NCBI GenBank assembly: GCA_044892505.1
Contig: CM097882.1
Span: 244,528,001-244,592,000 of the forward strand
From: Schmidtea nova
Taxonomy: Eukaryota
Reading direction: 5' to 3'
Length of the DNA: 64,000 nucleotides
Part shown: positions 1 to 54,060 of the stretch, piece by piece
Position numbering within the stretch: position 1 is the stretch's first letter
Layout: the number at the start of each line of letters is the position of its first letter
Notes under the pieces: model-generated
Told to the model about the DNA's origin: nothing
What the model saw: only the letters and a program-made list of their open reading frames with translations
Database searches by the model: none
Made by a program: the position numbers and the translations under genes

Positions 1-111
1 ACAAGTACGCCGAGCCCGATGAAATCAGTATTAACGCCAGGAACAAGTTCAAGATGATCTGAGACAACACCTAGGGAAAACAGAGAAAGGACTCCACCAC
101 AACCATACGAC

Positions 112-19940: not shown

Positions 19941-20129
19941 TTCTGAAAAATGTATCATTAATCGGGTTATGTATGGTTTGTCTGTTCTCTCAGTCACTTT
20001 ATTATTAAACAGGTGTTTCACTTTTAGACCACTTCATGCTCACAAAGTCATAACAAAACCCAAAAATTGAATACATTTATTTTTTAACACACATATCCTC
20101 GTTCTTCGAATGATCGACTTCCTTGCGAT

Positions 20130-25668: not shown

Positions 25669-26019
25669 CTATACATCCTCAGTTGAATCTGGCTCTGGAT
25701 ACACGTCTATCTCATTTACAATCCAGCTCGTCCAACTATCTGGTATCTCTTCCTCTTCATGTCTCGTTAATCGGTCAATTTCCTCTGCTTGCCAGTTGTT
25801 CACTTCATTCAATGTTCGGTTCTCGTTCTGTAATTCGTTTATCTGTAGTTGTTGAATCTCGATTTTGTTCATTGCTTCGAAATTACAGTTGTAACTCTCG
25901 GTTAATAATTGCGTTTTGGCCGTCAACTGGCTCTGTAATTCGTTTATTGTTCTGGCTAGCAGGTCACATTGCACTTTCCATCTTGTCATCGTTGACATCT
26001 CGATATTTTCTTGGTTCAT
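25669..26019 (-). CDS. 116-aa coiled-coil protein
   Basis: Heptad pattern with acidic tail; sits in the tightly packed 3' cassette. Confidence 0.65.
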   Translation of the reverse strand: MNQENIEMSTMTRWKVQCDLLARTINELQSQLTAKTQLLTESYNCNFEAMNKIEIQQLQINELQNENRTLNEVNNWQAEEIDRLTRHEEEEIPDSWTSWIVNEIDVYPEPDSTEDV

Positions 26020-32100: not shown

Positions 32101-35100
32101 CTCAAATGCTGCTTGCTGTTCTGTTCCCCACACAAACGACACGTCTTGTCTTACTAATTCTTGCATTGGCTTTGATATTCCTGCATAGTCCTTGATGAAT
32201 TTTCGATAATATCCACACAATCCCAAAAATTCTTGTATTTGAGTCACTGTCTTTGGTGGTGGACATTCTTTGACTTTTTCGATATTCCTTGGATCTGGTT
32301 CTTTTCCTTTTGCTGATACAATGTGACCTAAAAATGTCACTTTCTCTTTTGCCCAATCGCACTTTGACGGCTTCAATTTCAGTTTCCACTGTCTTAATTT
32401 CACGAACACATTTCTGATGTCTTGTAAGTGATCTTCAAATGTTGCGGAGTAGATCAATAGATCGTCGATATACACCATGCATTGTTTTATGCCATGTGTT
32501 ACGAAATTCATGCATCTCTGGAATGATGCTGGCGCGTTTGTTAACCCAAACGGCATTTTCTTGAATTGGTACAGATCTCGTCCGATTGTAAATGCTGTCT
32601 TTTCTTTATCCTCGTCTTTCATTTTGATCTGCCAATATCCGCTTTTTAAATCTAGTGACGTGAAATAAGCTGCTCCTTGTAACGTCAATAACATTTCGTT
32701 TATATCTGGCAATGGGTACGTATCTCTTTTCGTAACTGCATTCAACCGTCTGTAATCGATACAGAATCTCTGAGTTCCATCCTTCTTTTTTACCATCACC
32801 ACTGGGAATTGCCAGGGTGAGCAACTAGGTTCGATGACCTCTGCATCTAACATTTTTTGTACTTCTTCTTCTGCTACTGCTTTTTGGGCTTCTGCCAATT
32901 TGTATGGTCGTAATGCTATTGGCGTTTCGTCCGTCAACGGTATCGTGTGTAATGTTACATCACATGTTCCCAAATCTAAATCTGATGCTGCAAATATATC
33001 TTTATATTCCATCAACAGTTTCTGTAACTGTTCTTTTTGTCGTTCGTCTAACAACACACTGTCGATTTTCCATGGTAATTCGCCTTTGCCTTTCTCATTC
33101 TTGTCTGGTATTTCGATTTCGGACATTGGTGTCAATTTACCCAATCTCTCATTCTCGTATATTATCTTGTCCTCTTCGTCGAAATTTACCAGATTGATCG
33201 GTATTTCTCCTTCCTGGTTTATCGTAACCAATTCTCTTGCCATTGGTAATTCTTTCTTTGCTTCGAACTTCTTACTTGGTTCGAATATCATATCTCCTTT
33301 TATTGTCGAATCGATCTTGACATAGCACATCATTTCGTGCCTCGCTGGCACTACTATTTGTTCCGCACTTGCCACTTTAACTTTCATTCTGCAGATTTTT
33401 CCTGTCCTATCTTTTAGTTTCATTGCTCCTAGATCAATTACGATTTCCTTGAACAGGTCTGGCATCAGGTCAGTTCCAATAATACATGGTACACTCAGCG
33501 ATGGTATTACAGCGATGTACGTGTTGATCTCTGCACCTCGATGCTTAATTTTTACAAACCATCTTCCGGCTACTTCTACTGTCTCTTGACTGCACGCGAT
33601 TACATGTACATTCGTCTTCTCGATTTCTCCTTGATTTTTCTCTGGTATATAATTAATGTCGATCGCCGAAATATTCGCGCCTGTATCGATCATAGCTTCG
33701 ATTTCTCTTCCATTTATTTCTACGGTTGTTGTTAAAATCGGTCCCATATTTGTGGACATAACCGCTATCGTATGCGTGTCTTTTAACGAGTTTACACTTC
33801 CACCTCGTTTTACTTTGCATCCTTCTGGAATTATCGGGTATATACTTGTCATCGGCATCATCTGCATCATATTCGGCTTCGCTTTGTATATCGGTTCGTT
33901 ATACATTGACTGAGGTGGAGCGCTGTATCTCCAATTCTCAACTGCACTCTTTTCGTTATACTGTGGAATCTGGTTTATATTCGCTTGTCCTCCTCGATCG
34001 TCATCGTCATCATCATCATTGCTTGAGTCATCTTGCGTTCGATATCCTCTCACTCTTTCCCATAATCCTTTCCTTTCTTTCTTTAGTTGTCGCCTTGCTT
34101 GTTCATCTTGCATTATCTTTTTGAATTTCCTTCCGACATCTTCATTTGTTCCTCTCATTTTTGCAAGTATCTTCAACAACCTCTTTATTCGATGTATGTC
34201 TTTTGAGTGTCCGTGTAACACCATCGTTTTCGCAAGGAATGGTAAAAACCCTACTACCATTTTCCAATTCACTTTCTTTTCTCTCTTGTAGATGTCGAAA
34301 CACGCTAACATTTGCGTTATTATCACTCTGACGATTTGTATAATCAATATAACACCCAGTATTCCAGCCATCATTTGTCCAAAGATCAGGAATCTTCCCC
34401 ACATTGCCTTCATCATATTTTCCGTAGCTTTTTTGAAATGTGCCGGTGACAACAGCAGTTCGTAATTCGGTCCTTCTCGATAATCCGTTCCTCCCGTTAT
34501 CGTTACGATATTTGACAGTAATGCTTCTCTTCTTGCCGGGAATAATATATTCTGCCTTGCTGCTTCTAAATCCTTTGGACTATAGATTCCGTTGTTTGAG
34601 ACATCTACGTCACTGAACTGTCTATCCTTTGACAACTGCATTAGCTCAAATTCTCTTGGTGCTAATACTTCAGTTCTTCCTGGGAACATAACCCATTTGC
34701 CATCTGGCTTCTGATAAAGCGGTCCGTACGCGTTACTACAGTTGAATGGATTTGGTTCAAACCCTGGTGGATTGATGATTCTCGTCACCGGTTGAACGTA
34801 TCGTACTTTTCCTTTATAATCGATTTCTAGTTCGTTTGTACATTGTCCAGGTTTCAACTGCGTTGTTGCTGCTAGCGATGCGTGTGTCTTTTCGCAAATG
34901 TATACGTACATTGCTTCTCCGACCACTCTTCCGAAATGTCCTTCTCTCAGTGGTAATAATGGCATCGCGCTATCTGGATTCGTAATCGCTACGGCCAACT
35001 TTGTCTTTAATATTTCCCGATTCAGTATGCAATCGTTATTTATCAGATCATAGTACACTTTTTGCAATGAGGCTTGTCCTCTATGGAATAAGAAATCCAT

Positions 35101-38100
35101 TTTATTATTCACATACAAGTGTAGCTTGATATCCATTGTGTCGATCTTGGGTTTCGCATTCGGCACTTCTTGTTTTGACACGTATATTCCTGGATAGTTT
35201 GTTTCGTATACTGTGGTACTGCACTTAAGGGTTGCTTTCCCTTTTATGAATCTCATGCCCACATCCTGATTTGTGGTTATCAACACTGTAGGTGTGGTTC
35301 TCATCTCTATCCGTTTTTCTCTATGATCTGGCTTCAATTGTCTTTTATTCTCTAACGCTTCTTTGAGATGTTTTGCTCTAGCTTTGTCATCATCGTCTTC
35401 TTCTTGGAATGTTTTCCCTTGAATTTCGTCGAACTTTGCTCCTTGTAGCAGTTGTAATTGACATTCGTTCACTTTTGGTTTATACACCAATGTTGACATT
35501 CCCGTTTGACACATGCTTCTGTCAATTTTACACATGGATAACGTTTTCATTTCTCCTGTTGTTGGTTCGAAGAATGCTTCGTAGCTTTTCAGTTCGACTA
35601 TATACGTATCCATTACCACTAGGTTGGTTGCAGGTACTCCAAATATCGGATAGGTTTCTCCTTGACAATACCCTTCTCCTCCCGTAATTCGTCCTGCTAC
35701 ATAATACGTCTGCTGCAACATCATTCCTGGCTTTCCTTTTATCTTGATTTTATCTCTCGTTGTCACTTCTCCATGCTTGAATAATGCTTCACAGTCTTCT
35801 CCTTGTAACACGATTGGTTCTCTTTCGGTTCCTGGCATGACAATTGCTGAATAATGTCCTCTCCCACAATAGAATGCGAATCTCGTCTTCTGTACCTTGC
35901 ATTCATTCACCATTGTCTTTATTAGTTCTGCCTCTTGATACACGTGATACCATTGTTCCTTTTTGATCTCTTTCAATTCTACTGGAGTTGCATCTTTGCA
36001 CTGCTCCGTACCTCTCAATGAGTACTTTTCTCCCAATTTCATTTGATCACAATCAAATACCTCGAACGTTGTTACACCTTCTGTGCTTAACAACCATACT
36101 AACATCATCATGATTATCGAGTTTAAATTCAACGTCGATCTCCCGTTTCCTTGCATCGTTTGTCTATTCTCCATTTCTCTCAATACTCCTTCGAGTTTCT
36201 TTCTCATAACGTTAGACCCTTCTTTTGTCTGGTTCTCTTTTATGAACTTTTCCCATCCTCCTTTTCTGAGGATATATGGTTCAATTTCCTTCTCGATAAT
36301 CATCGCCGTACTCTTGATATGTCTTCCCATCGGACTTGACTTCGGACTTCCTCGGCTTAGCGTTAGCAAATTGTATATCGTATACGAGATTGCTACTAGA
36401 TATTTGCTATCCGTCTCTGCTCCGTTAAGTAGCCTTTTTACCAACATCGTGGTTCCTTGCCAATCTAGATGATTCGATTTTGTTTTCGCCTTAATCAATT
36501 CTGGCATAATCGGTGCTATTGCATTGTGTAGCATCCTTGCCTTTGTACTAGGTTCGTTTATCCGCCACAAATTCTTTAATTCCGGGTCGATTATCGCTAA
36601 CACATCCATTATCGTTTTGGTGAGCCATTCCTCTCCTTGGCAGACTTGATTCTCCTCCTTGCCTCTGATTTCTGCGATTTTATCTAATTTCTTCAAGCAA
36701 ATCTCCCATTGCTCTTGTCTCCTTTCTTCCCTTGATTTTAGGATTGTTGTTGCTGGATCTGTCTTTGGTCTTCCTCTTGGTCGTTTTTCCATTCCGGTTC
36801 CCGTTTCTACAAATCTCACTGCTCTTCCCGTTTCTTCTGTAACATCTCTTCCTTCGTTCGCTCGCTGTTCTAACCATCTTTCCATTTCTTGAGTAAACTG
36901 GGGTTGTTCTTGCTCGTCTTCCGATTCGTTTACCATTTCTATGACTACCTCCTGTTCCACTCCTTGATCGTCGATTTCTGCTGGTGACGTTATTGGCATC
37001 TCTATTATTCTGTCAAAGATGTTCGCTGTTGGTTTTTGAGTCAACTTCGTTAATTCCTCTATCGCTTCATCACTGTCTGTTAGTATCTCATCTACGTCAT
37101 ACGCTTCTGGCGGTGTTCCCTCTCTGATTTTTACTGGCATTGTCCTTGTTTGTCCCGAACTTGTTCCTGGGGTCATTGTTGACTTCATCGGACTTGGTGT
37201 ACTCATGCTTCCCTTCGCTTTCTTTTCCTCTTTAAACTTCAGTGGTTGACCCACTATCTGTGCCACTGTTAGCGTATTCATTAGATCCAATTGCACTGGT
37301 GTCAGCCAGATTTCCAAACTATTATCCAACGATCGTCCTTGATGTTGCAGGTGGAATGGTAGTTCGTACATCAGTTTCTCTTTAACACTCTTCACTTTTT
37401 CTGTTAGCATCACCCAAAACTCTTCTTTTCTTTGATTCGGATACATTATCCTCAAATGTATTTTCTGTGGCGTTTCCTCCGCAAACTCTTTGTTTCTCCA
37501 CTTTTTTATTACGTCGTCTAGTTGCTCTGGACACCACTCGTTAACTCTCTTGTATTCTGCTATCGCCTTAGCTACTTTTCTCAAGTTCGTTATGTCTTCT
37601 CCATTTGAGATTATGAAACCTGCTAAGCCTTTTATTGTTTGTCTTTTTCCCCGAGTATTTCCTCTCAACCGCTCGATCAATTCACTCGTTTTCTGTTTCT
37701 CCAATTCTGCCCATATTACTGCAGTTTCTGGTCCGTCTAAGTCCGTTGGTAGTAACCTCCTTGTTACCATACATATTCGTTTCGTATTCCGTTCATATCT
37801 GTCTTCTCCTTCCGGATCTTCTTCATACACGCCTCTTTTCACTTTCCAACATTTCTCTTTGTTATCCCATTGTTTCTCTACTGGCGTCAATCGTCGTCTG
37901 TTGAGATCCAATTCTCCCAATATTGTCTCCCATTCTGGCTTCATCTGCCAGTTCCGATAGATTTCTACTATCTGTCTCAGCTTGCGCATAACGTCCTCTT
38001 GTCGTTTCTTTTTCCTTTCCTCATCTCTTGGTGTTGCTCTTGGCACATCATCCATTCTGATGACGTGTATTGTCTGATAATTATCCCATATGCCGATTTT

Positions 38101-41043
38101 GTACGCTCGTCTTTCGTCACGTTCGTTCAGTAGATGTTCTTTGTATTTTATCGCAATGTCATCCTCAAATTCGTCTTCCCGTTCTCGTTGCAATATCTTC
38201 TCGTTGATGACCTCTACTATTTCTCCCACTTTACTATCTGGTATTACCTCAATTTGTCTTGTCTCTTCGTTTGGTAATCTCACGGTAATCTTCAGATCTG
38301 ATACTTCTCCTCGTCTAAACATTTCTTTTCCTATCTTTGCGATTAGCTTGTCCGTTTTGAAATTCGAATGTCTCGTTTGACTTGTATCTCGTATGTTCTC
38401 GATACATTGCTTCAAATTCTCATACTCGCTTTTCGTCAGTTCCTTTCGATGTTTCTTGATTTGTTGGATGATCTGTTCTATCATCGTATTCAAATTCTCT
38501 GCCAAGATTCTTTCTTTTGCCTCTACCAACTGAGGTTTTATTCTCATCTCGTAACACGTATTCGCTTCTTTGATGATTCCTTGTAAGTTCTCTTCCTTCT
38601 TGGTGTTGCATATAGATAACGTTGTTATTTCTCCTGGCCAGATGCCTGTATCTATCATATGCGTTCCCTTTTTCACCAATCCGTTTTCCGAATATATGAA
38701 CTTGTCTTTGTACGAGCTTCCCAATCTGTCCTCAACCCATCTGTAAATTCCATCCGTCATTGGGTTCCTTATCCAGATTCTCGGTGAACACTCGTTTATC
38801 CATATCTGTATTATGTATTCGTTGAGTGGTTCTTTCAATAACTTCTCTATGAACTCTTGTATTACCCTCACTTCTCTTTCTTGTAACCACTCTTTGTACT
38901 TCATTTGCCATACTGCTCGTATAAACTTTCGGTATCGTTTCGTGTCAATAAACTCCTCGTTATGGATTACTTCCAACGCGTTATCCATCAGCTTCTGAAT
39001 TTCGTCTTCCGTTACTGACACTGTTTCCATCGTCTCAACTACTTCCATCTTTTTGTCCTCGTTTTCCGGTTCCTTTAGCATGTCTCCTGCCAGACTGCTA
39101 ACTTCGCTGTTGTCTTCTTCATCTGACAACTCTTGTCTTGGGTGTCTTAGCATCCCAATATGTGCGGTTGGTCTTGTTTCGTTTTTGCTAACTTCTTGTA
39201 TTAGTTCATTCTCGTTTCCTGTTACTTCAGCTTTTCCCATTCTTTTCTCCAACTCCTCTATTTCTTCCAACCGTCTTCGTCTTATTTTTCCCTTGAATAT
39301 TCGACTGATCCGAGTTTGATGTTTCACTGGTGGGGGAATTTTCTCCGGTTCCACCTCTCTGATGATCATCACGTTTATTTTCGTCTCCGTTACTCCCATA
39401 TCTTCCCATATATCGGTCATCTTTAACTTCACTTCTGGCAAATCCTCTGTTTGTAGGAATGCTTCTCTGGGCAGTTTCGTCACTCCCGGAATCATCTCAT
39501 TTACTTTATTGAACAATCTTCCCACTTCTTCTTTTACATCGTATTTGAATCGCCACACGTGATCATTCGGCATGATCACCAACATTCCTCTTTGTTTGAT
39601 TCTCACTTCCTCTTCTTGATTCGTTTCTTTTTCTGTTTCTTTTTCTGTTTCTGTTTCTTTTTCTTCTTCTTCATCTTTTTGATTCTGCTCTGTAGTTTCT
39701 ACTTCCTGACTCACTTCTTCTTGTTTCTGCTCTTCGTTTCTTTTCTCTTTAACTTCTAACTCGTCTGACTCATCCTGCTGCTTCTCTTCCATCATTGCTC
39801 GCATCATGTTGATCCTTGGATTTCCCTTTTTTAACTGTTGTAATCGTTGTTGCCTGACTTGTTCTTCTTCTCGTCGTACTCTAGCCCATTCTTGATTATG
39901 TTTCTGTTGACTCTCTCTGTTTTCTCTTTCGGCCTCAGCTTCTATTAACTGGATCATGTTTATCTTTGGTTGAGCAGCTTGTTGGCTTCCCTTTGCCATG
40001 CTTTCGATTATCTCGTGTAATCTGGATACCTCCTGTCTCAACTTAGCTTCTTTCATACTAGCTTCGTTTGCACTGCTGTTTGGGTTGTTCCGTTGTTGAC
40101 CCTGATTCCCATAGCTTGGTCGATTCCCGTAATTCGGTCTATTTCCACTGTTTGACCAACTTCTCTGTTGATTACAATCTCTTGACATGTGTCCGGTTTT
40201 TCCACATGTGTAACACGTTTTCCCATAACATCGATTTTCTGAGTGACCTTTTTGTCCACACAGTTTACAGGCTACATTCTGGAAACACTCTTGTTGCCAA
40301 TGTCCGTTTTTCCCACACGTCTGACATTGCCTATTCTGCCTGTCATTGTAACTATTTCCTCCATTCGTATTCACCGTAATATATCCGTTATTCTTCCTCG
40401 CTGGCGGTTCTTTGAACAATCTCTGCGAATGGGGAATACTTTGATTCATGTTTCTTTTTCCTTGTTCTTCATCTTCTGTCGTTTTTCCCATTACCGCCGT
40501 AATTCTCATGTCGTTCATTTCCATATGCAATTCGAATAGGTTGGCTGCTTCCAACGCTTCATCTACTGTTTTACATCCTTTGCATCCCACTTGTGCTCTG
40601 ATGTCAGGTCTCCTGAGACCTCGTACGAATAACGCTGTCATCAATTCTTCGTCTACTGGATTTCCTCTGTTAAATGCCAGTTTCGCCAACTTTCTTAATT
40701 CACTTGCGTACACTGCATTTGACTCGTTTCTCCTCTGTTTTCTTGCTGAGAACTCATCAAACGCTTCGTTCAACACTTTATTTATCCCAAACGTCTGTTG
40801 GAAGAACTCCTTGATTGCTTCCCACGTTCTGGGTGGATTACTTCCCGATCTCTTCTCAATATACAGATCCAATGCGCTATCTTTCAAGTATAGCGGGATT
40901 CGATTCGCTAACGTTTCTGCACTCCATCCGCATATATCCACGAATATGCCAAATTCTTTCAGGAACGTGTCCAATCTACTGGCGTCTCCATTAAATGGTT
41001 CGCCCTTGAATTTTTCTCTTAGATCTTCTCTGTGATCACTCAT
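26143..41043 (-). CDS. gag-pol: 4966-aa Gag-accessory-Env-Pol-accessory polyprotein
   Basis: Single open frame with CA-like N-terminus, 3 CCHC knuckles, DTG protease, YIDD RT, RNase H (TDAS), HHCC and DDE integrase, plus extra domains listed separately. Confidence 0.97.
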   Translation of the reverse strand: MSDHREDLREKFKGEPFNGDASRLDTFLKEFGIFVDICGWSAETLANRIPLYLKDSALDLYIEKRSGSNPPRTWEAIKEFFQQTFGINKVLNEAFDEFSARKQRRNESNAVYASELRKLAKLAFNRGNPVDEELMTALFVRGLRRPDIRAQVGCKGCKTVDEALEAANLFELHMEMNDMRITAVMGKTTEDEEQGKRNMNQSIPHSQRLFKEPPARKNNGYITVNTNGGNSYNDRQNRQCQTCGKNGHWQQECFQNVACKLCGQKGHSENRCYGKTCYTCGKTGHMSRDCNQQRSWSNSGNRPNYGNRPSYGNQGQQRNNPNSSANEASMKEAKLRQEVSRLHEIIESMAKGSQQAAQPKINMIQLIEAEAERENRESQQKHNQEWARVRREEEQVRQQRLQQLKKGNPRINMMRAMMEEKQQDESDELEVKEKRNEEQKQEEVSQEVETTEQNQKDEEEEKETETEKETEKETNQEEEVRIKQRGMLVIMPNDHVWRFKYDVKEEVGRLFNKVNEMIPGVTKLPREAFLQTEDLPEVKLKMTDIWEDMGVTETKINVMIIREVEPEKIPPPVKHQTRISRIFKGKIRRRRLEEIEELEKRMGKAEVTGNENELIQEVSKNETRPTAHIGMLRHPRQELSDEEDNSEVSSLAGDMLKEPENEDKKMEVVETMETVSVTEDEIQKLMDNALEVIHNEEFIDTKRYRKFIRAVWQMKYKEWLQEREVRVIQEFIEKLLKEPLNEYIIQIWINECSPRIWIRNPMTDGIYRWVEDRLGSSYKDKFIYSENGLVKKGTHMIDTGIWPGEITTLSICNTKKEENLQGIIKEANTCYEMRIKPQLVEAKERILAENLNTMIEQIIQQIKKHRKELTKSEYENLKQCIENIRDTSQTRHSNFKTDKLIAKIGKEMFRRGEVSDLKITVRLPNEETRQIEVIPDSKVGEIVEVINEKILQREREDEFEDDIAIKYKEHLLNERDERRAYKIGIWDNYQTIHVIRMDDVPRATPRDEERKKKRQEDVMRKLRQIVEIYRNWQMKPEWETILGELDLNRRRLTPVEKQWDNKEKCWKVKRGVYEEDPEGEDRYERNTKRICMVTRRLLPTDLDGPETAVIWAELEKQKTSELIERLRGNTRGKRQTIKGLAGFIISNGEDITNLRKVAKAIAEYKRVNEWCPEQLDDVIKKWRNKEFAEETPQKIHLRIMYPNQRKEEFWVMLTEKVKSVKEKLMYELPFHLQHQGRSLDNSLEIWLTPVQLDLMNTLTVAQIVGQPLKFKEEKKAKGSMSTPSPMKSTMTPGTSSGQTRTMPVKIREGTPPEAYDVDEILTDSDEAIEELTKLTQKPTANIFDRIIEMPITSPAEIDDQGVEQEVVIEMVNESEDEQEQPQFTQEMERWLEQRANEGRDVTEETGRAVRFVETGTGMEKRPRGRPKTDPATTILKSREERRQEQWEICLKKLDKIAEIRGKEENQVCQGEEWLTKTIMDVLAIIDPELKNLWRINEPSTKARMLHNAIAPIMPELIKAKTKSNHLDWQGTTMLVKRLLNGAETDSKYLVAISYTIYNLLTLSRGSPKSSPMGRHIKSTAMIIEKEIEPYILRKGGWEKFIKENQTKEGSNVMRKKLEGVLREMENRQTMQGNGRSTLNLNSIIMMMLVWLLSTEGVTTFEVFDCDQMKLGEKYSLRGTEQCKDATPVELKEIKKEQWYHVYQEAELIKTMVNECKVQKTRFAFYCGRGHYSAIVMPGTEREPIVLQGEDCEALFKHGEVTTRDKIKIKGKPGMMLQQTYYVAGRITGGEGYCQGETYPIFGVPATNLVVMDTYIVELKSYEAFFEPTTGEMKTLSMCKIDRSMCQTGMSTLVYKPKVNECQLQLLQGAKFDEIQGKTFQEEDDDDKARAKHLKEALENKRQLKPDHREKRIEMRTTPTVLITTNQDVGMRFIKGKATLKCSTTVYETNYPGIYVSKQEVPNAKPKIDTMDIKLHLYVNNKMDFLFHRGQASLQKVYYDLINNDCILNREILKTKLAVAITNPDSAMPLLPLREGHFGRVVGEAMYVYICEKTHASLAATTQLKPGQCTNELEIDYKGKVRYVQPVTRIINPPGFEPNPFNCSNAYGPLYQKPDGKWVMFPGRTEVLAPREFELMQLSKDRQFSDVDVSNNGIYSPKDLEAARQNILFPARREALLSNIVTITGGTDYREGPNYELLLSPAHFKKATENMMKAMWGRFLIFGQMMAGILGVILIIQIVRVIITQMLACFDIYKREKKVNWKMVVGFLPFLAKTMVLHGHSKDIHRIKRLLKILAKMRGTNEDVGRKFKKIMQDEQARRQLKKERKGLWERVRGYRTQDDSSNDDDDDDDRGGQANINQIPQYNEKSAVENWRYSAPPQSMYNEPIYKAKPNMMQMMPMTSIYPIIPEGCKVKRGGSVNSLKDTHTIAVMSTNMGPILTTTVEINGREIEAMIDTGANISAIDINYIPEKNQGEIEKTNVHVIACSQETVEVAGRWFVKIKHRGAEINTYIAVIPSLSVPCIIGTDLMPDLFKEIVIDLGAMKLKDRTGKICRMKVKVASAEQIVVPARHEMMCYVKIDSTIKGDMIFEPSKKFEAKKELPMARELVTINQEGEIPINLVNFDEEDKIIYENERLGKLTPMSEIEIPDKNEKGKGELPWKIDSVLLDERQKEQLQKLLMEYKDIFAASDLDLGTCDVTLHTIPLTDETPIALRPYKLAEAQKAVAEEEVQKMLDAEVIEPSCSPWQFPVVMVKKKDGTQRFCIDYRRLNAVTKRDTYPLPDINEMLLTLQGAAYFTSLDLKSGYWQIKMKDEDKEKTAFTIGRDLYQFKKMPFGLTNAPASFQRCMNFVTHGIKQCMVYIDDLLIYSATFEDHLQDIRNVFVKLRQWKLKLKPSKCDWAKEKVTFLGHIVSAKGKEPDPRNIEKVKECPPPKTVTQIQEFLGLCGYYRKFIKDYAGISKPMQELVRQDVSFVWGTEQQAAFETLRDKLITAPILVHPDFKKPFLLATDASGYAAGAVLGQFDEEGKERVIGYYSRTFRKHERNYSVTEREAYAIILAIKHFKYLLWGHEIYITTDHQPLVWLGQHKESSSRLMRWAMQLQEYSPFIKFKAGKANANADCMSRFIFPELVNLNALKICALIAEDLDFSELRKDQLGDEELGLISQYLKEKEIEIFGKNQVLREHMQKYQHRYVMEKGWLLIQDGERRLMCLPANRRKEIMTQYHDGKLGGHMSVKKTIGRLRQKYFWPTMEDDVKEWIKNCLTCATRKNVGTKWKTPLKPMPIPAEPMATIAMDVVGPLPESLKGNQYILVVTDYLTKFPEAFAIPDQKAKTVARILVEEICCRYGTPKKILTDQGTNFMSEILDEVTNYFRIAKLRTSPYHPQTNGQTERFNGTLIRMLSNYVSKHQTDWDEYINLCLMAYRMSIHAATKLSPFQLMYGRDCNLPIDLEYQPPLSQYMEVDDYVTKFKERMQEIWKTAELNIKFYQESYKDLHDQKKNVKAHDLKVGDWVIIETPEIIPGTVKKLQRPGKGPYEITTVNENNVRVRLVNNPLVRPIYVNACRCRKIPKTVTLLPEKRVMTRSQTARISMLRVQQKPQTSLEDNRREIIDIKELAKKTREIIPEWKWWHDFNILSEVRKNVMDYAKDRTAHPITRTLLEEIPQTLNLQDKDGNTALHNAIKHSGNEKVKEIVEMILEGGGEIDKVNWEGITPLMMMTIHGRNDEIIKLFGNTRSNWLTKDKEGRTFLNHAIDRANHRILKYITENATWEINELTRGSIMKQAIGVKNSKTWRILLKWKRPEGDSWVIDCNEVFTRGENALLKHLLEVTYDPKTLAVLVARDTLRVSENPREYKLEDRKKELFGLIKKWCDKQWNPDMSFEHFYDIQKQHKEISKRYKELVEALKYGQFFRQAVYQDQRMKQMQTRIRSKAVLFNAKADYQERLNAIVAKAQEKLSEFKENKNSLEILGTITEKVHRYAEGDYNESDIETIKNQMPVAFLLSKDGRLPIHWALRRKKENEVLEITKAMVKCEADMNTADDNGDTIMIIAARKKTNCKVLNELYEAGAKIEGKNGKNNSIIDIAIQWNNFEMIKFIKSIKKQDDIEYLANNVKNFSLTVMIHDIEKTRALLTWVNPVTKEPAFKINDHMEQNQNWCIRSALLRHKKPEIVEEFLKRRDLKFTNNSKEQERIGRWKDLFRKYVKEWANAKETIKQSRLKDIEPSKDMEIREFESSTLAVQAYERLIEEINVEDDISKGPGGGYRDFDDKSDSKKEDNKDNNEDNEKERQEEPKPTRNDKKGEAEERENSGTEDEHANYGKRTGSLLLRPEMLCIAILITIIGQGEAKKQYVTLEIIRGNEVYERICWKENLKKNDTLKCILSDLKRDVIQIKGLEKEKSYIICAIKQRGEPKAPQVTACQLYKATEALKIQKWIEKRSKETTRRTEVESEKGKNQTEAEEGIRNRTEKERITKNPAGKLTFQPELICVALILILIKRIMEDIDISVMTLVNIQDQRTTNGRCWGRNNEVIGISETRESREAETNEEIEITEMETEKTCELCLMEKAANGNRPGTSECKVFQAKEIIEFPKRKKQDQETIANEVVTVEIKNIGRRTIGMCWRKYIGIPTNNIIPQCRTRERGIPFQLNGFEVGQAYEICVIRRIREIIQRSLECKLYQTPEQINGTRTIEMGRSRQRKRKSRRTTTTNSQRTQQATTERTTIENEPESTTLIIWKIHKKVLEICWTLMPNSMRESPRNCQKTSNDKRETIEVEMRRLKTNAEYEVCAIEEVDAQGNQQERCETYYTPRNITIKGGTRKLEFRELSQKREQNEKEETIPNRQEKWEPEKVIEEVRRRQQQYEQWEAEWKGQYGVMINQSETPRMSIGKTVMGLISMGVFIACIPLITIMIVCWRYGMRNKTIAVKWPDVKVTNYNIKLSKEVREELKRRSKHEEMWVQIEDEELYEGKPVVIV
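26330..28068 (-). other. C-terminal membrane module: two signal/TM-like segments, about four FN3-like repeats, final TM
   Basis: IKGLEKEKSYIICA, ITEMETEKTCELC, LNGFEVGQAYEICV, MRRLKTNAEYEVCA match the FN3 L-x-x-L-x4-Y-x-V strand; TM VMGLISMGVFIACIPLITIMIVCW. Confidence 0.6.
28765..30054 (-). other. Two clusters of about three ankyrin repeats (29760-30054 and 28765-29052)
   Basis: DKDGNTALHNA, NWEGITPLMM, DKEGRTFLNHA; KDGRLPIHWA, DDNGDTIMIIAA, GKNNSIIDIA. Confidence 0.88.
30400..31400 (-). other. Integrase (HHCC, DDE, GPY/F)
   Basis: HDGKLGGH..CLTC; MDVVGPLP; TDQGTNF; HPQTNGQTERFN; GPYEI. Confidence 0.96.
31680..32060 (-). other. RNase H
   Basis: LATDASG, YSVTEREA, TDHQPL, NANADCMSR. Confidence 0.95.
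32310..32970 (-). other. Reverse transcriptase
   Basis: SPWQFPVV, RFCIDYRRLN, LDLKSGYWQI, MPFGLTNAPASFQR, YIDD (32461-32472). Confidence 0.97.
33400..33740 (-). other. Aspartic protease
   Basis: EINGREIEAMIDTGANIS (DTG at 33679-33687), IIGTDL. Confidence 0.93.
34200..36120 (-). other. Envelope glycoprotein (chuvirus G / herpes gB-type class III fusogen-like) in the polyprotein
   Basis: Internal signal-like SIIMMMLVWLLS; FDC...YSL...C start; Cys-rich ectodomain with CILNREILKTKLA, GEAMYVYIC, CTNELEIDYKG..YVQPVTRII, C..AYGPLY..W; TM at 34297-34392. Confidence 0.8.
36238..36708 (-). other. Bcl-2-like domain in the polyprotein
   Basis: Multi-helical region ending in BH2-like PYILRKGGWEKF; BH1-like DWQG is weak. 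Confidence 0.7.
37249..37461 (-). other. Ubiquitin/SUMO-like domain 2 in the polyprotein
   Basis: IHLRIMYPNQRKEEFWV..TEKVKSVKEKL..FHLQHQGRSLDNS..L..MNTLTV. Confidence 0.55.
38053..38295 (-). other. Ubiquitin-like domain 1 in the polyprotein
   Basis: LKITVRLPNEETRQIEVIPDSKVGEI...IAIKYKEHLL..GIWDNYQTIHVI follows a beta-grasp pattern. Confidence 0.6.
40174..41043 (-). other. Gag capsid plus three CX2CX4HX4C zinc knuckles
   Basis: PFNGD..FL..F; W..IKEFF..TF; KQRRNES..Y; LFVRGL; CQTCGKNGHWQQEC, CKLCGQKGHSENRC, CYTCGKTGHMSRDC. Confidence 0.93.
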
Positions 41044-41917
41044 CCCGATTCCACTATCTTGGAATGCTGTACTAGTTTTCTTTACTTCTAGTTCACCACT
41101 TGTTTCTGAATTCGACTCTTCTTCTTCGCTACTCTCTGTTTCGTTATCTCTTGATTCGCTTCTTGTTCTGTTTTCCCTGACTAGTTCACTGTCTATCGTC
41201 TCTACTTCGTTTTGTACTTCTAGATCTTCTGGGGTTTCTTCTTGATTCTCTTTATTACTCGAATTATCGCTGATCTCTACTTGTTTGTTCTTTTGTTGCT
41301 TAGGCTTGTTACCTGTTCTTGTCCTTTTCGCTGCTTTTCTTTCTGCTTCCGTTAAGATTGGTATTATACCTGATCTTGTTTCTCGTCCCTCAATTTTGTC
41401 TATTCCTCAACTGCTTATATTCTCAACTGCTTTTCTACTCCGCTTTTGCTTTGCTTCTTCTTTGATTTGTTTCTTTTGATTGCTCTGACTGCTAGATTGC
41501 TTTGAATTGCTTGATTGATTTGTTTCCTTAAAACAAATAATCACTTACACGATACGTCCCCGTTATCGTGTTTCTCGTCCCTCTCACGGGTGTAGTCATA
41601 ATTCATGAAGATCCCCATTTTTCAAATTTCCCTTGATTTTAAGTCTATTTAAATTATCTATGCAGTCGCATCAATTATCTATTCTTTATCAAATACACCA
41701 ATTACTTTTCCCCAGTTCCCCAATTACTTTGTCGCTCAGCGCTCTTATTATCCCCTTTACTTTTCTCAGGCTTCTCTGGCTCTGAGTTCAAATTTCCCCT
41801 TATCTGTCGACTACTCTGTTTCTCGACTATTCGCTTTATCTCCTATTCACACTACGTTTACTACTTCATTTCAATTCTCATCTCTACTCACCTTTAATTC
41901 GACTGACATCTCTCGTT

Positions 41918-42384
41918 GGCCTGCTGGGCTTTCCAGTCAGCGCCTTTCATCTCACCTTTTATCTCGACTTTATTACTCTCAACATCACTCATTATCTCAT
42001 TAGCCTGCTGGGTTTTCCAGTCAGCGCTTTTAATCTCACCTTTTATTGTTATCTCGTTACTCTCGACCACGACTGTCGTTTCATTAGCCTGCTGGGTTTT
42101 CCAGTCAGCGCTCTTGTTATCCTCCATTTATCTCTTTACTGTCGACTTTTAACTGCTCTTGACTCCGATGATCATCACTTTTGACCTGCTGGGTCTTCCA
42201 GTCAGCGTCCTCACTTTCACCACTTTATTATTACTCACTTTTATTCTCTCGATCTTTCCTGATCGTTATCATTGACCTGCTGGGTTTTCCAGCTAGCGTC
42301 TTTACCACTTTACCTGTCTTAACAAACCGGTTTTATTTTACTCTCTTCGAATCTCATGGTCTGCTGGTTTTTCCAGTCAGCACC
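41918..42384 (-). ncRNA. Array of six 27-nt bulged stem-loops (putative cis-acting RNA element)
   Basis: Copies at 41918, 42002, 42086, 42183, 42274 and 42358; consensus NNN-G-CTG-A-CTGG-(5-nt loop)-CCAG-CAG-NNN with covarying basal stems. Confidence 0.7.
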
Positions 42385-42710
42385 CTTCACTTACTCACTT
42401 TACTTTGCTACTCCTCCTTGTATGCATACTTTAACATCATTAGGCCACATAATCAGCTTTACTCGCATTTATCAATACCCAGGTGCGCACCTTCAACTCT
42501 CTCATTATTACCTCGGTTTCTTTCAACCCTTATTCCTCATTATTCGCTATTCATTTTCACTATTCATCATTTATCCTCATTATTATTTATTCATCTCCAT
42601 TATCGCTTGTTGATCTTCACTATCCGGATAGTTTTATACTTTATTTAGTCCTCATCTGCCTCACTTCGTCGTCTTTCTCGTGGGCTTTTACTCAATATTT
42701 TATTTCGAAC

Positions 42711-43270
42711 GAGAACTATGCTCACAGCTGAGAACTATGCTCACTAACGAGAACTATGCTCAATGACGAGAACTATGCTCAATGACGAGAACTATGCTCA
42801 CTGACGAGAACTATGCTCACTGACGAGAACTATGCTCACTGACGAGAACTATGCTCACTGACGAGAACTATGCTCACTAACGAGAACTATGCTCACTGAC
42901 GAGAACTATGCTCACTGACGAGAACTATGCTCACGGGCAAAACATGGTTGTTATGAGGGTTTTGCTTACTGATGGAAACTCTTTGCTCCGGGGACTATGT
43001 TCCCCGATGAGAACTATGCTCACTGATGGTGACTACAGGAATTATGTTTCCTGATGAGAACTACGCTCACTACGATGACTATGCTTATTGATGAGAACTA
43101 CGCTCACTGATGAGGACTATGTTCGCTGGTCTTGTGTTTATTAATGAGAACTCTGCTCACTACGAGAACTATGCTCACTATGATGTTGTGTTTTTATGAC
43201 GAGACCTATGCTCACTAGGATGTTATTTTTATGACGAGACCTATGCTCACTATGAGACCTATGCTCACGA
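42711..43270. repeat. 19-bp tandem array (GAGAACTATGCTCACTGAC): 12 copies at 42711-42934, degenerate copies to about 43270
   Basis: Read directly. Confidence 0.95.
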
Positions 43271-43967: not shown

Positions 43968-44426
43968 TTACAAGTACACTGTTATTCTTTCGGATACGGT
44001 AAGGTTGCACATAGGACATCGTTCATTTATTTTACAGTCATTACAGAATCGAAAATGCCCACATGGCAACAACATTATCTGTATTTTGTTCATTTCACAG
44101 ATATAACACGTCAGATATTGTCTCGTATGTTCTGTTGTTATTCTTATCCATTCATCGTGTTTTGTTGTTAACTGTTGTTCTAGCCTGTGGCACTCGATAT
44201 TCATCTCAGGGTTGCTTAATCTTTCTCTATACCATTGATATCGTGTTGTTGTATCCACTGTTATCTTATTCTCGCTTATGCTCATCATCATGTCGGCTCT
44301 TTCTGTGTTGTTTGTCGGTTCGTGATATTCTCCTACCTCGAGTCGTCTTAACTTCCTCATTATTGTCTCCACTGTTTCGTTGTTTGTTTCGAAAAACGTT
44401 TGCATTTCTTTTATTTTGTTCTCCAT
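43968..44426 (-). CDS. 152-aa protein with C-terminal IAP-type C3HC4 RING (putative E3 ligase)
   Basis: CYICEMNKIQIMLLPCGHFRFCNDC..CPMCNLTVSERITVYL at the extreme C-terminus; no BIR domain. Confidence 0.9.
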   Translation of the reverse strand: MENKIKEMQTFFETNNETVETIMRKLRRLEVGEYHEPTNNTERADMMMSISENKITVDTTTRYQWYRERLSNPEMNIECHRLEQQLTTKHDEWIRITTEHTRQYLTCYICEMNKIQIMLLPCGHFRFCNDCKINERCPMCNLTVSERITVYL

Positions 44427-44960
44427 CCCCTGAATGAATTATCATTAATTTCTGTCGATTTTTATTTATTATTTATCATTCTTATTCTATGGTAGCCCTA
44501 CTGTTCGCTTTCTGTTGTTCTGTTTTGCGTCACTGCGTGTATATCCCCCCGTGTTCTTGAATGTCGCCCCGACATGATCATTGTTAGTTGCTCACACTCA
44601 TACCATTTTCATACACGCTTTTCAGCATACTTTTACCTTACGTCATGCATACTTTTCATCACTTTTCATACTGTTATTCCACATACTATTCATCATACTT
44701 CATTCGTCCTCATACTTCCATTCCATTATCATTCATACTTTCATTCTCATGCATACTTTCATCACGTTCATCAATCTCATTATTTTACACTCATACTTTT
44801 ATTTATTATTTTTCAACCCGATTTATTCTTGCTTCAGGACCCTCAAACCCTCTGTTATTCTTTACTTTACTTTTCCTCGCTAAATTCACTTTCATCCCGG
44901 TTCATGCGCTCTAAACTGTCCGCAGCTATCGCATTCACTTTTTCACACAAAGATCGATTT

Positions 44961-44979
44961 AATCCCGGCTGAGCCCCCA
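44961..44979 (-). promoter_or_regulatory. Primer-binding site, tRNA-Pro type
   Basis: TGGGGGCTCAGCCGGGATT, 6 nt after the 5' LTR; two mismatches to the MLV Pro PBS TGGGGGCTCGTCCGGGAT. Confidence 0.85.
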
Positions 44980-45369
44980 AATTTATGCTGGTGTGTTGGT
45001 TAGATTGACAACTGAGATCCTTATGATTTTATACGTTAGGGTGATCTCGCCAACATAAAAACATTCCCCCGCTGACACCCATGATGTATCCCTAACTACT
45101 CATCATGTTGGTGCTGTGTCAACGTTGTGAAATGACAAGGCAGGTGAGCAACCTTTCGGCTACTATTCCCTTGTTTATTCACGGGTCCACCACTACCGTT
45201 AGAAGGTGTCTGTGGCTTTCTTTCGGTCCCACTTATGCTCTTTTCTTTTGTCCTAGGGTAATTTACATTTTAGATATCTGCAGCTTTAAATGAACCAGGT
45301 TTTCATTACCTTTAATTCTCATACATACTTCAACAAACAAGACAAATCAAATCATTCATTTATATACAT

Positions 45370-45933
45370 TTATTTGTAGTTCAACAATACAGAGGGTCGG
45401 ATTACGTTTAGTAGCTCTTGCTCAGATAGGCCACTGAGCAAGTCTACTTCGATCCCAAGGCTATCTGCGTATGCTCGTCTTTCCCTACGCTTTTTCGCTC
45501 CCAAGCGATTCCGTCTCTTTGTTCGTTTCGAGCCCTCCAGAATTATTGGGGATGTTGTGGTAGTTGTGATTGGGATGGTTTCTATTTCCGTTTGGGTACT
45601 TGTTGTCGTAGATATTGTGTCTACCCACCGATTAAAGGTGCTAGCCCGGATCACTGGGCGTAATTGCTCGGTGATGAACTCCTTGGTTGATGCCCTCAAG
45701 TAATTCGCCAGCTCCATCTTTAGGGCTGCAATCTCTCTGGCATGTTCCTCAGCTACTCGTTCTGCCCTGTATCTAGCCTGCAGGATGGACTTAACCTGCT
45801 CTGGGTTAAACCATGTAGTCTTAATTCGCTGGTGCTCGTCGTTGAGCTGTCTCAAGCGGTTTTCTAGGACTCGCGATCGTGCTTTATGTTCTTTGGCCTC
45901 TTGTTTGTGGTTCTTAGTTGAATGTTCGCTCAT
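45370..45933 (-). CDS. LTR-encoded 187-aa protein (coiled coil, Thr-rich linker, Arg-rich motif, Leu-rich tail)
   Basis: Start chosen at TTTTTCAG|AAATG rather than the tracked GTG at 46014; KRTKRRNRLGAKKRRERRA; stop overlaps AATAAA. Confidence 0.7.
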   Translation of the reverse strand: MSEHSTKNHKQEAKEHKARSRVLENRLRQLNDEHQRIKTTWFNPEQVKSILQARYRAERVAEEHAREIAALKMELANYLRASTKEFITEQLRPVIRASTFNRWVDTISTTTSTQTEIETIPITTTTTSPIILEGSKRTKRRNRLGAKKRRERRAYADSLGIEVDLLSGLSEQELLNVIRPSVLLNYK

Positions 45934-46122
45934 TTCTGAAAAATGTATCATTAATCGGGTTATGTATGGTTTGTCTGTTCTCTCAGTCACTTTATTATTA
46001 AACAGGTGTTTCACTTTTAGACCACTTCATGCTCACAAAGTCATAACAAAACCCAAAAATTGAATACATTTATTTTTTAACACACATATCCTCGTTCTTC
46101 GAATGATCGACTTCCTTGCGAT

Positions 46123-46758
46123 TTAGAGGAAGGGTCTTAATTCCTGATCGCTGGTATTCTCGTCGCGACGGATTCCATTCTCCCAATACATTTCTGGGGC
46201 TGGGTTCCAACTCAGCTTGTCTTTGTAGATAAACACCTCCCAGAGGCGAAGCTCCTTGGGCTCGGGGTGTTGTTCCACGGAAACACTTCCTGGCGCATTG
46301 GAATAAGCGAAGACTTCCTCAGTGTAGCGACACCGAGGCCTGTCTAGCAGCGTGTATCCGAGTTTGTGTAGCTCTTTTCCGGTCATCGTTCCGGTACTTA
46401 GCAGCCAGCGGGGTTGCTGTAACTCATCGCAGAATTGATAGAACCATCGGGGGTTCTCCGGCTTACTATGATCCGAGGAGAGTACCCAATCAGTATCCCC
46501 TTCCCACCGCAGCTGTAGTCCAAACGCGCAAGCTGGGGTGTTAGCCGCTAAGCTCATATGGGCCCTCATCCACCGTCGTAGGTGGCGACGTGATATTTCT
46601 GTCACCTTTCGAGGTGCTTCGTTTTCTCCTCTGACGTTTATGATCGTATTGTGTCGGATGACGGAGCGGGTGCGCCGTTTCTTACGAAGGATGGTTTCCT
46701 CTAGCTTTATCGGGTGCGCGATCATCGACTTCCTTTGGAGATTCTCTAGTTTCACCAT
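46123..46758 (-). CDS. LTR-encoded 211-aa protein of unknown function
   Basis: Open in both LTRs; TTTTCTTTAG 7 nt upstream, TATAAATA 58 nt upstream, AATAAA about 50 nt downstream. Confidence 0.65.
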   Translation of the reverse strand: MVKLENLQRKSMIAHPIKLEETILRKKRRTRSVIRHNTIINVRGENEAPRKVTEISRRHLRRWMRAHMSLAANTPACAFGLQLRWEGDTDWVLSSDHSKPENPRWFYQFCDELQQPRWLLSTGTMTGKELHKLGYTLLDRPRCRYTEEVFAYSNAPGSVSVEQHPEPKELRLWEVFIYKDKLSWNPAPEMYWENGIRRDENTSDQELRPFL

Positions 46759-47674
46759 AGTATTTCTAAAGAAAATGGTTGTTTGTTAACTATGGATTCT
46801 ATGGTATAACGGGCCTATTTATATCAGTCAACCCACCCGTTATACTTAATTTTCAACACTCATGTTCAACCACTCAGCTTTAACAGTTTTTATTGATCGA
46901 TAATACTATTTAATCACATTCAATCTCATCAGTCGTTTTCGATTAGTTCCTCATTTAACTAGTAATGATCATGCCATGTCGGGTAATTCTCGTAAGTTCC
47001 TGTGGTCATTGTACACTGGGGTTCATCATTTTATCGGTCCTCAATGCCTGTAATTTGTTTATCATCTCTCCTGGCGACTAAACATAGCTGACAGAGGTTA
47101 TCGATTATCCTTAACCATTGATACTAGGTTCACTATGCCCGAACTCGTACGCGCTAAGGTTGACATATACCTACCCTCGTCGTTACCTAATTCATAGGCA
47201 CTAATATTATTCACTACACGTATATCCCTCGTCTAGACCTCGCCACGATATATATCTTTCCCATACCACGGGTTTCTCGTTACGCTCGTTTACGACTACT
47301 AGTTTATGCTCGATACCCTATCATCGTGATGTATATCGTTTATATTAGATCATCGCTACCTTGATTTCGTTCACAATCATTAGGTCTTACTCGATACCCT
47401 ATGTGCATCCCCTTTTTTCCCCCCACCAAGTATTTAATAAACTTATGGTCCCGCCGCATCAGCACCTCACAACCGAAAGATTGTGTTGCGCTGAGAGGCC
47501 CCAAGAATCCGTCAGGCTGTTAGGCCTCCGGAAAACCTTATTGATTTTAATATGGTTAACAATTATGAGGGTTTATATGAATGATACAAAACATAACTCA
47601 ACCATACCTTTTATTTCCAACTGGTTTCCAATACAAGGTTGTTAGAAGTTATCAGTTACAACTTGCACTCGGTA

Positions 47675-47750
47675 AAAATGACATTACCAAATACTGATTT
47701 GACTTCAGTATTTATACTCAACCGGTGTTGTTGGTTAGCCAATCAGCATC
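47675..47750 (-). promoter_or_regulatory. Candidate LTR core promoter
   Basis: TATAAATA on minus (47709-47716), CCAAT box AGCCAATCAG (47737-47746), Inr-like TCAGT/TCATT downstream. Confidence 0.45.
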
Positions 47751-48122
47751 GAGTATGTGTGTATGTTTGATTCATTATTTTGTGTTGCCGGCTTTTTGGT
47801 GCCTAACTCAACTCAATGATTTATTTGGTTAATCATGCGGTAAGTTTTTCTTAGTCATCAATTTATTTTATTTTATTTTTGTTTTAGGTCTTTGGTGACA
47901 TCCGCCCACGCGCTGTCATATTCCAATTTTATCTGCTTCGCATGAGTGAGTTTTGAAGATTTTTGTTGTTTTGATTAATATTTTATTTCTTTTAGATGTT
48001 GCCGCCTATTTTGTTACGCTTTGGTGTTGGTAATTTATTTTGTTGTTATTCTGTATTTAATTTATTTTATTGATTGTACATTATTTTCAGATGCTGCTCG
48101 ATTTGGCTGGCCCAACATATAT

Positions 48123-52049: not shown

Positions 52050-54060
52050 TTATAATAAATTATAAATATAAATCATCGCCGATAAACGCTTATTTAATTT
52101 GCAATTCTTAATTTCAAGGAAGAAAGAGTCAGTGTCACCAACAACAATGTCAATCTTACAATTGAAAAGATTCCTATATTTCTTCAATTCAAGATATTGG
52201 AGTTGATACATTCTAAGTTTAGACAGATCTAGTACCGCTTGACCGATATAACTAGGTCTGTCTAAACATGTCAAATCCTTGTTAAAATGAACTGCAATCA
52301 AATCGTCATCGACTTTGATGCACTTTACGAATGACGGTTTCGATGAATAAGTAATCATTTTTTCAGATGAATTACACAAACGCAAATTTATCCGCTTTTT
52401 TAAATTTTCTACAGATTTACCATAAAGGCTATTATTAAGAAGCCCAAAGTAATTTTATCCAACTCAGTTGTTGAATTTGCTCTCAAAGAAGTATTAGTGT
52501 CAAAATATTCCTGTAAATATAGTAGCCTGTTTGAATTTTATAGGCCTATGTACTTTACTAATCTTTACACCAAGAGAAAGAAACATCTTGAGAAGTCTCC
52601 AAAGAAGAACGTAGAAATTGTACATTTCCATATTCAAAAAAAGTTCAATAGGTTCCTTCAATGTTATGAGAGCAGAAGCCCATGACATTCCTGGAATTCC
52701 AAAAAAAATTTAAAGGATCCAATCCATTGTGAGCAATGGACTTGGCGCGAAATTGTTGAAAGAAGTCAGCAAGTAGGAAAACGTATAATTTTAAATAGAC
52801 CATCATATAATATAACAAAGTGTTACAATTATTTTCAGTCCAGACTTGTTGAGCTCTCAAGTACTCAGTTTCAGTACCATCATTCCAGATAGGAGGTAAT
52901 TCAAAGGTTGTCTCAAGAATATCCAAACTCGTCGCAAAGTTAAAGGGAAAAATACCTTTACAATCCATTATTGATCCTAAATTCAGAAGCAATTAATGGA
53001 AAACTATCAAGAGTTTTAACTGCTTTTGCTAATGAAGCATTAATGAACTGATAACTATCTATAAAGCGAACAGAAATTTTCTCAATATGATCAATTAAAG
53101 AAATGAATTTTTCAGTACTAGTAGGAATAATATTTAATTCCCAATTAGGAAAATTAAAAAGACCATACTTTAAAATGTAATGCATATCATAGCCTCTCAA
53201 GTTATGGAAAATAACAGGAAAGTGCTGACAAATTATCCTTCAAATATTACAGAGATTACAAGCAGCACCAAGATAACGACCCGAAAAGTGATCATGATCT
53301 TTAACTCGATTTCTAATCGGTTTCTTACAAAGGAAACAATAAGAGCAAGTCCAAAAAGATCTTTCCTCATCAAAAGATAAAGTTGAAATAGGTTTATTAC
53401 CATGATTTTCATAATTTGGGAGTACTATTGTGACAGCAATCTCCTCAACCTTTTTCAAAAATTCAAAAACACAATTTAAAATTATAAAACTGAAATAAGA
53501 AGAAAAAGAATTTAAATTATTAATTAATAATAACCCTGCTGATATAGGTAAATGTCTGTGATGGTGCTGTATGTCACTAGGCAAAATCGACTCAAAATCA
53601 CCATAAATTACAAAAGGAGGTTTAACAGTTTTTGAAAAATCACTAAACTCTAAATTTTTATTCTTGGGGAGTGTAAATAAAGTTGTTGCTATTTGATTTT
53701 TACTACATAAATCAATTTGAATATCAAAAGCTTCCTGACGTCGGAAACCATTGAGACATCTTATACACCAAGGACATCTTATTCTTACGTTTATTAAATT
53801 ATTTTTATGGCAGCCCATTAATTTTTGTAAATTACTGACTGCAGTATAATGAAAATTTCCATTGTTTTCAATTAATAATAAGTATATGGGTGTAATATCT
53901 GTTATTTTGGTCCTATGAACTATATCTAAGTGGGGGTGATGTGCTACATATTCATCATTATTTTAATCATCGCAATCATTAGGAATATTTGTAGAGTATT
54001 AACTAAGTACATTTATAGCTAAACCCGTCTTATTTTCCTCAAATTTAGGAATATTACATA
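52050..54060 (-). mobile_element. Polinton/Maverick protein-primed DNA polymerase B relic
   Basis: KPPFVIYGDFESIL, HDHFSGRYLGAACNLCN, GYDMHYIL, RFIDSYQF, DRPSYIGQAVLDLSK, GDTDSFF; many frameshifts. Confidence 0.85.

Follow-up and report, generated by a model that had tools for sequence, protein, structure and literature searches.

The closest described relatives of the element studied here are the Burro/GYPSM1 Gypsy-like elements of planarians, which measure about 30 kb and combine long LTRs, an ORF1 of about 5,000 residues (Gag knuckles, then an in-frame Env ahead of pol, and ankyrin repeats) and a TRAF/MATH ORF (PMC6431247). The motifs named in the available portion of that description are BIR, MATH, BCL2, AIR1, Smc, SUMO-like and dUTPase, and do not include a stand-alone RING ORF in the leader (PMC6431247). 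According to Lee et al. 2026, as cited in PMC13465017, the Burro1 gene B-IAP encodes BIR and RING domains and keeps planarian stem cells from undergoing apoptosis. Burro elements and their apoptosis and ubiquitin cargo are already known, and the leader RING gene characterized below appears to be the new part. Our literature searches found no description of such a gene in Burro, with the proviso that Lee et al. 2026 and Grohme et al. 2018 may annotate this ORF, and returned no match on RING ubiquitin ligases encoded by accessory ORFs of retrotransposons.

The window, i.e. the whole 64,000-nt stretch of Schmidtea nova DNA that was analyzed, contains a 29.1-kb element on the reverse strand (19009-48117), and all of its features given below lie on that strand. 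Its Burro-type Gypsy layout agrees overall with that of Burro/GYPSM1, including the TRAF/MATH accessory ORF, and its lineage differs from the available description in having no BIR and a TRAF ORF located 3' of pol (PMC6431247). The 5' LTR (44986-48117; 3,132 bp, bounded by TG...CA) and the 3' LTR (19009-22124; 3,116 bp) differ by three mismatches and one 16-nt indel and are flanked by a 4-bp TATA target-site duplication; these near-identical LTRs, together with the duplication, point to a young insertion. The primer-binding site (PBS, 44962-44979) is complementary to tRNA-Pro(TGG) and has 2,940 exact matches in the genome, and the 3' ends of the host tRNA-Pro(TGG) match 15 of its 18 bases, namely, the 15 that were tested. 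The polyprotein (26143-41043; 4,966 aa) carries Gag CCHC knuckles, then a fusion glycoprotein that is in frame and precedes PR-RT-RH-IN, and also ankyrin repeats. It is followed by accessory ORFs of 116 aa (25669-26019), 470 aa (24167-25579; the TRAF ORF, with RING, zinc fingers and MATH), 386 aa (22917-24077, beginning 90 bp after TRAF) and 171 aa (22328-22843, with hydrophobic segments). A GGWxxF motif near residue 1590 of ORF1, which was noticed by eye and which we take to be BCL2-like, was accompanied by no BCL2 match in Pfam and PDB searches.

Several further observations concern the element and its surroundings. A tandem array of tRNA-Pro(TGG) with a period of 308 bp starts at G000:C1:459609706 (L224); its pattern occurs 1,106 times genome-wide and fits the PBS. 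The 5' LTR contains ORFs of 211 aa (46123-46758) and 193 aa (45370-45951) for which Pfam gave no convincing match; in the 3' LTR, the latter is shortened by the 16-nt indel, and a neighbouring relative has homologs of the two at 78% and 87%. A second, inverted Burro-like element occupies positions 4-8527 on the forward strand, with DNA 71-81% identical to the pol region, and in its upstream part the LTR ORFs lie directly beside a mid-ORF1 fragment.

The leader RING ORF (43968-44426; 152 aa) follows the PBS at a distance of about 0.54 kb, and the gag ATG (41043) comes 2.9 kb after the ORF. It consists of a family-specific helical domain (residues 1 to about 104; 44115-44426) and a C3HC4 RING with its C-terminal tail (residues 105-152; 43971-44114), which contains the eight zinc ligands, N141 at the linchpin place and Y151 as tail aromatic. 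The initial annotation, made from the sequence alone, had claimed at exactly these coordinates a BIR-less C-terminal RING between PBS and gag, preceded by a helical region and ending in a hydrophobic VYL. All of this was confirmed: the motif reads L120-P-C-G-H124, C128, C131, C137-P-M-C140, the protein ends in ITVYL, and the HMM comparison that had been suggested, with Pfam zf-C3HC4_3, gave 35.8 bits (E 6.9e-9; cut-off 27). AlphaFold2, run with a 14-row alignment of family members, predicts residues 2-104 to be helical (pLDDT 79.7, pTM 0.63), with four short helices (2-12, 19-31, 40-52 and 59-71) followed by a long one (73-104) that enters the RING. Fold searches with this protein gave no match at Z >= 8 and none in Foldseek at E <= 0.001, the ESM Atlas gave no usable match for residues 1-104, and word-index protein searches matched neither the window protein nor, as weaker evidence, longer fused forms of it. 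Iridovirus 413R and the ascovirus 16.4 kDa RING protein, which also combine a short helical region with a C-terminal RING, came top of the viral fold search; however, with E > 0.001 and an rmsd of 15-28 Å outside the RING, the similarity does not extend beyond the RING. The leader between the RING gene and gag additionally holds a 19-nt tandem array (42671-43270) and a longer spaced repeat family (41904-42389).

The presence of the ORF in other copies, on which the initial annotation had made its reading depend, is well established: a protein search of the genome returned at least 150 matches, 136 of the 150 listed being free of internal stops. For the analysis of selection, copies were picked on non-coding leader DNA, which avoids a choice by protein similarity, and the top 30 of 40 such matches were used, the window's own copy included. 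The ORF is intact in all 30. Among their 29 distinct sequences pN/pS is 0.037/0.155 = 0.24, with 0.18 for the RING alone and 0.16-0.33 as dN/dS in the N-terminal domain; the ratio is 0.24 for variants common to several copies versus 0.48 for private variants. Differences at codon positions 1, 2 and 3 number 2493, 2158 and 6587, the third thus changing about three times as often as the first or second. We hold it as nearly certain that the leader RING ORF is a real gene under purifying selection.

The distribution of this gene was surveyed in the first 40 of the 2,940 PBS matches by scanning 7 kb at each. A homolog was found in 31, with a full ORF by a motif test in 24 of them, and the order PBS-RING-gag holds in all ten elements with both genes in range. 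The homologs fall into five lineages, namely, A (the window's), D, E and F, with two members each, and B, with 23. Proteins of lineages D, E and F are 42-48% identical to the window protein and those of B about 25% (lowest, 24%), and this homology includes the N-terminal domain besides the RING. Three database proteins (P0002, P0151 and P0155; 27-30% identical) represent a further lineage, and P0052 probably belongs to another. Throughout the 14 aligned rows all eight zinc ligands are invariant, and so are, besides the start Met, F11, K25, E42, Y63, R69, L70 and N76 of the helical domain. A homolog is missing from nine of the 40 elements, five of which show no gag either. The other four (L166, L169, L175 and L179) have the same PBS and a gag located 5.3-6.4 kb downstream, and the existence of this lineage with an intact-looking gag indicates that the leader gene is dispensable. 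Eight stretches from four copies of the RING-less lineage gave no match to TRAF or to any other 3' ORF of the element. Elsewhere in the genome, three lineage-B leader RING ORFs lie in tandem, 1,243 bp apart (G000:C1:371971001-371973960).

The relation of this gene to B-IAP could be approached because a BIR search of the genome revealed a multi-copy 399-aa BIR-RING frame, which is a separate gene of lineage B and likely the counterpart of B-IAP. It lies 3' of TRAF in two lineage-B copies, where the leader RING is found 2.4-2.8 kb after the PBS. Lineages A, D, E and F have TRAF followed directly by the 386-aa ORF, with no BIR-RING gene between; in the window, the 90-bp spacing between these two ORFs means that the position used in lineage B holds no such gene. 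Furthermore, no BIR-like motif was found on the coding strand of the window element, and none of the 14 leader RING family members has a BIR according to Pfam. The leader RING does share an IAP-like RING with B-IAP, being 39% identical over 46 residues to the lineage-B BIR-RING, but it differs in lacking a BIR, in its N-terminal domain, in its location 5' of gag rather than 3' of TRAF, and in a linchpin that is not Arg. Since both genes exist in lineage B, and since the N-terminal domain is family-specific, the leader RING is no truncated form of B-IAP. The two RING genes are distinct, the leader one being more widespread, as it occurs in five lineages, four of them without BIR-RING. The absence of BIR-RING from lineages A, D, E and F also implies that the leader protein does not need the element's own IAP.

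Two lineage-B copies deserve mention in their own right (G000:C1:300697659-300725430 and G000:C1:350789537-350803747; L064-L070). The stretches examined gave no match to gag, RT, IN or env, and the copies retain the leader RING, protease, ankyrins, TRAF and BIR-RING. They are apparently non-autonomous elements that retain host-modulating cargo.

These data bear on the reading that the leader RING goes back to a captured IAP that has since decayed, or else is an untranslated leader ORF spread by recent copying. Its upstream ATGs, described below, are compatible with such an origin, as are a weak profile similarity to the BIR-RING protein that extends some 40 residues N-terminal to its RING and a topology test (see below) that does not reject a clade of leader RINGs with BIR-RING. 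However, the dN/dS of 0.24, the conservation of ORF, start, stop and invariant residues among lineages at 24-48% identity, and the co-existence with a complete BIR-RING gene in lineage B largely refute a non-functional ORF, and we regard this reading as highly improbable.

The classification as IAP-type, put forward in the initial annotation, stands in part. In its favour, the best matches of the family profile among solved structures are IAP RINGs (cIAP1, cIAP2, XIAP and BIRC7, at 42-52 bits; PDB 3eb5, 6hpr, 4ic2 and 4auq), led by cIAP2 with 51.7 and XIAP with 50.0 bits, and these share with the leader RING the C3HC4 spacing with PCGH, the pre-RING helix and the tail aromatic. Non-IAP RINGs score lower, with 34.6 bits for MYLIP, 32.2 for MEX3C, 26.1 for MIB1, 24.7 for MUL1 and 16-18 for MDM2/4. 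IAP ancestry, however, did not emerge. In a RING tree of 66 rows and 54 columns the leader RINGs group together with weak support (98/36), the backbone is open and the IAP rows do not form one group; an AU test on 39 rows rejected neither a clade with BIR-RING (p 0.60) nor one with MUL1-like RINGs (p 0.59). The features themselves are shared more broadly. The zf-C3HC4_3 type occurs also in MUL1-like, ankyrin-RING and other proteins, a BIR being present in 27 of the 72 hits scanned for it among the best 150 database hits; and a tail aromatic is found outside IAPs in 4/4 MUL1-like, 2/2 ankyrin-RING and 19/24 other RING hits. Under a profile of the IAP pre-RING (UBA) region the leader members behaved like shuffles, in a test that is insensitive, its positive control having also failed (2.9 bits). 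'IAP-type' is therefore a fair label for a resemblance seen in the sequence, not for membership, as the BIR is absent.

What such a RING could do was considered in the light of cIAP1, where the tail F616 and R614 are described as acting in trans on the donor ubiquitin and R606 is the linchpin (PMC6349121). The aligned residues of the leader RING are Y151, T149 and N141, respectively; it thus departs from the cIAP1/XIAP type at both arginines as well as in having neither BIR nor CARD. The tail aromatic is kept in 14 of 14 rows, always with one or two residues C-terminal to it. The linchpin place holds Asn in eight rows, Lys in three and Asp in three, and never Arg, and the R614 place is basic in 0/14 rows versus 21/27 BIR-bearing hits. 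The Pro of the last CPxC is missing in half of the rows (7/14). I109, which we take to contact the E2 in IAP RINGs, is retained in at least 90% of the rows. In RNF38, Asn, Asp and Lys at the linchpin weaken E2-Ub binding 42-, 28- and 12-fold (PMC12326332, Table 1), so that the leader RING may by itself be scarcely active; the same source lists XIAP (Tyr) and RBX1 (Asn98) as ligases with a non-Arg linchpin (PMC12326332). The missing Arg points to either a weak ligase or a passive partner in a heterodimer. The suggestion that the protein is a stand-alone E3 or a dominant-negative may hold, the missing Arg being in keeping with a weak or passive RING.

The reading that we favour, and which we consider about as probable as all others together, is that of a BIR-less accessory gene of Burro-type giants, expressed from a spliced subgenomic RNA and encoding a low-activity dimeric RING ligase whose helical domain picks a host target. 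Two RINGs would pair through the pre-RING helix and the tail, with Y151 propping the donor ubiquitin in trans as F616 of cIAP1 does; the Asn, Lys or Asp found where the linchpin Arg is usual would make transfer slow or E2-selective, as in XIAP or RBX1. By analogy, the helical domain may take over from the BIRs the recognition of a substrate, which would be a host factor of cell death, immunity or silencing that keeps the element in check. Complex prediction for the homodimer gave a score of 0.02, from which no verdict was drawn.

A tentative possibility is instead that the protein is catalytically passive and heterodimerizes with a host RING of the IAP class or with the element's BIR-RING, as MDM4 does with MDM2, lending its tail aromatic in trans and thereby stabilizing, redirecting or poisoning that ligase. 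MDM4 (MDMX), with its tail aromatic kept and its activating surface degenerate, serves here as a working analogy (PMC12326332, PMC6349121), even if the RINGs of MDM2/4 score far lower than those of IAPs. An aromatic conserved in every row next to a linchpin that varies and is never Arg fits this reading, as does the lineage-B BIR-RING, which keeps the linchpin Arg, a basic residue at the R614 place and a Phe in the tail. On the other hand, I109 is kept, the linchpin Arg is absent also from 13 of the 27 BIR-bearing hits, and four of the five lineages have no element BIR-RING, which would leave only host proteins as partners there.

The initial annotation had further proposed that the leader RING pairs with the element's own TRAF, by analogy with cIAP and TRAF2, and this found little support. 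Both genes do occur together in lineages A, B, D, E and F and are both kept in the two internally deleted lineage-B copies. However, the 116- and 386-aa ORFs co-occur equally, the TRAF ORF is 3' of pol, about 18 kb from the leader RING ORF, and already has its own RING, and the gene beside TRAF in lineage B is the BIR-RING and not the leader RING. Moreover, in the available account cIAPs contact TRAF2 via BIR1 (PMC7290580), which the leader protein lacks. We consider a cIAP-TRAF2-like ligase of this composition very unlikely.

Somewhat less improbable, yet still unlikely in our judgment, is that the leader protein serves the element cycle, ubiquitinating or binding Gag or Env products, or ESCRT, for particle release. 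Late domains and ubiquitin are used in retroviral budding, and the in-frame fusion glycoprotein of the polyprotein would accord with such a role. Against it, the two deleted lineage-B copies keep the RING gene with no match to gag, RT or env in the stretches examined, and one gag-bearing lineage does without the leader gene.

Expression of the gene from a spliced RNA is suggested by its upstream region. The 557 nt between the LTR and the leader RING ORF contain 31 ATGs, which makes scanning from the genomic RNA implausible. The putative 3' splice acceptor (44430-44450) is a TTCAG separated from the ATG by 3 nt and preceded by a TTAAT that resembles a branch point. Across the lineages, an acceptor-like YAG ends 3 (A), 0 (B), 3 (D), 2 (E) and 3 (F) nt before the ATG, whereas at the same loci a YAG lies 0-3 nt before 461 of 5,472 ATGs (8.4%); these five lineages are related, and this 5/5 does not amount to five independent trials. 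The TTCAG is unchanged in 30/30 lineage-A copies, in which the leader just upstream varies, and the YAG is present at 20 of 22 lineage-B loci. Taken together, the sequence makes it likely that the leader RING mRNA is spliced. Splicing onto the YAG, in cis or by trans-splicing of a spliced leader, would bypass the 31 ATGs; a donor-like GTRAGW in common with lineages D and E was not found, and spliced-leader trans-splicing, which is documented in planarians (PMC10899757), may be the alternative to cis-splicing. Since the offsets differ in frame, and since in lineage F an in-frame stop separates the AG from the ATG, the upstream exon is expected to be non-coding and the protein BIR-less. For the same two reasons, and as the coding strand has no BIR, an upstream BIR exon was rejected as a candidate. 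Among the joints and loose ends listed for four sequencing runs none falls at the proposed acceptor; one loose end is what we take to be a Nextera adapter, which suggests that these runs are probably DNA and have no bearing on expression.

The accessory ORFs show a similar arrangement. In the window a YAG ends 1 nt before the ATG of TRAF (25579), 1 nt before that of the 386-aa ORF (24077), 2 nt before that of the 171-aa ORF (22843) and 7 nt before that of the 116-aa ORF (26019). In their counterparts in other lineages (L212, L214, L216, L219 and L070) the distance is mostly 1-3 nt, except that for the 171-aa ORFs of E and F no YAG is found in the nearest 15 nt. It is conceivable, if still speculative, that Burro elements resemble complex retroviruses in providing an acceptor of its own for each accessory gene, possibly used with the host spliced leader, and that the leader gene belongs to an E3 family of long standing, specific to these elements, whose BIRs have given way to a new helical domain and which, alone or in the manner of MDM4, redirects a host IAP ligase to a transposon-restricting factor.

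Burro-type elements carry a second RING gene, more widespread here than the BIR-RING gene, whose Burro1 version reportedly protects stem cells, and knock-downs directed against Burro RNA may deplete both RING proteins. Should the leader protein prove to be a ligase, or an adaptor for one, its target would identify the host pathway restraining elements present in about 2,900 PBS-bearing copies. Likewise, an acceptor before each ORF offers a concrete model for the expression of cargo genes by a 29-kb retroelement.

Finally, ORF fragments at 52050-53818 on the reverse strand of the window appear by eye to be DNA-polymerase-like, and presumably resemble the DNA polymerase of Polinton/Maverick-type elements. 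A similar element interrupts the TRAF ORF of a lineage-F copy (L218-L219), and the ORFs of this unrelated insert mostly have no YAG near their ATG.
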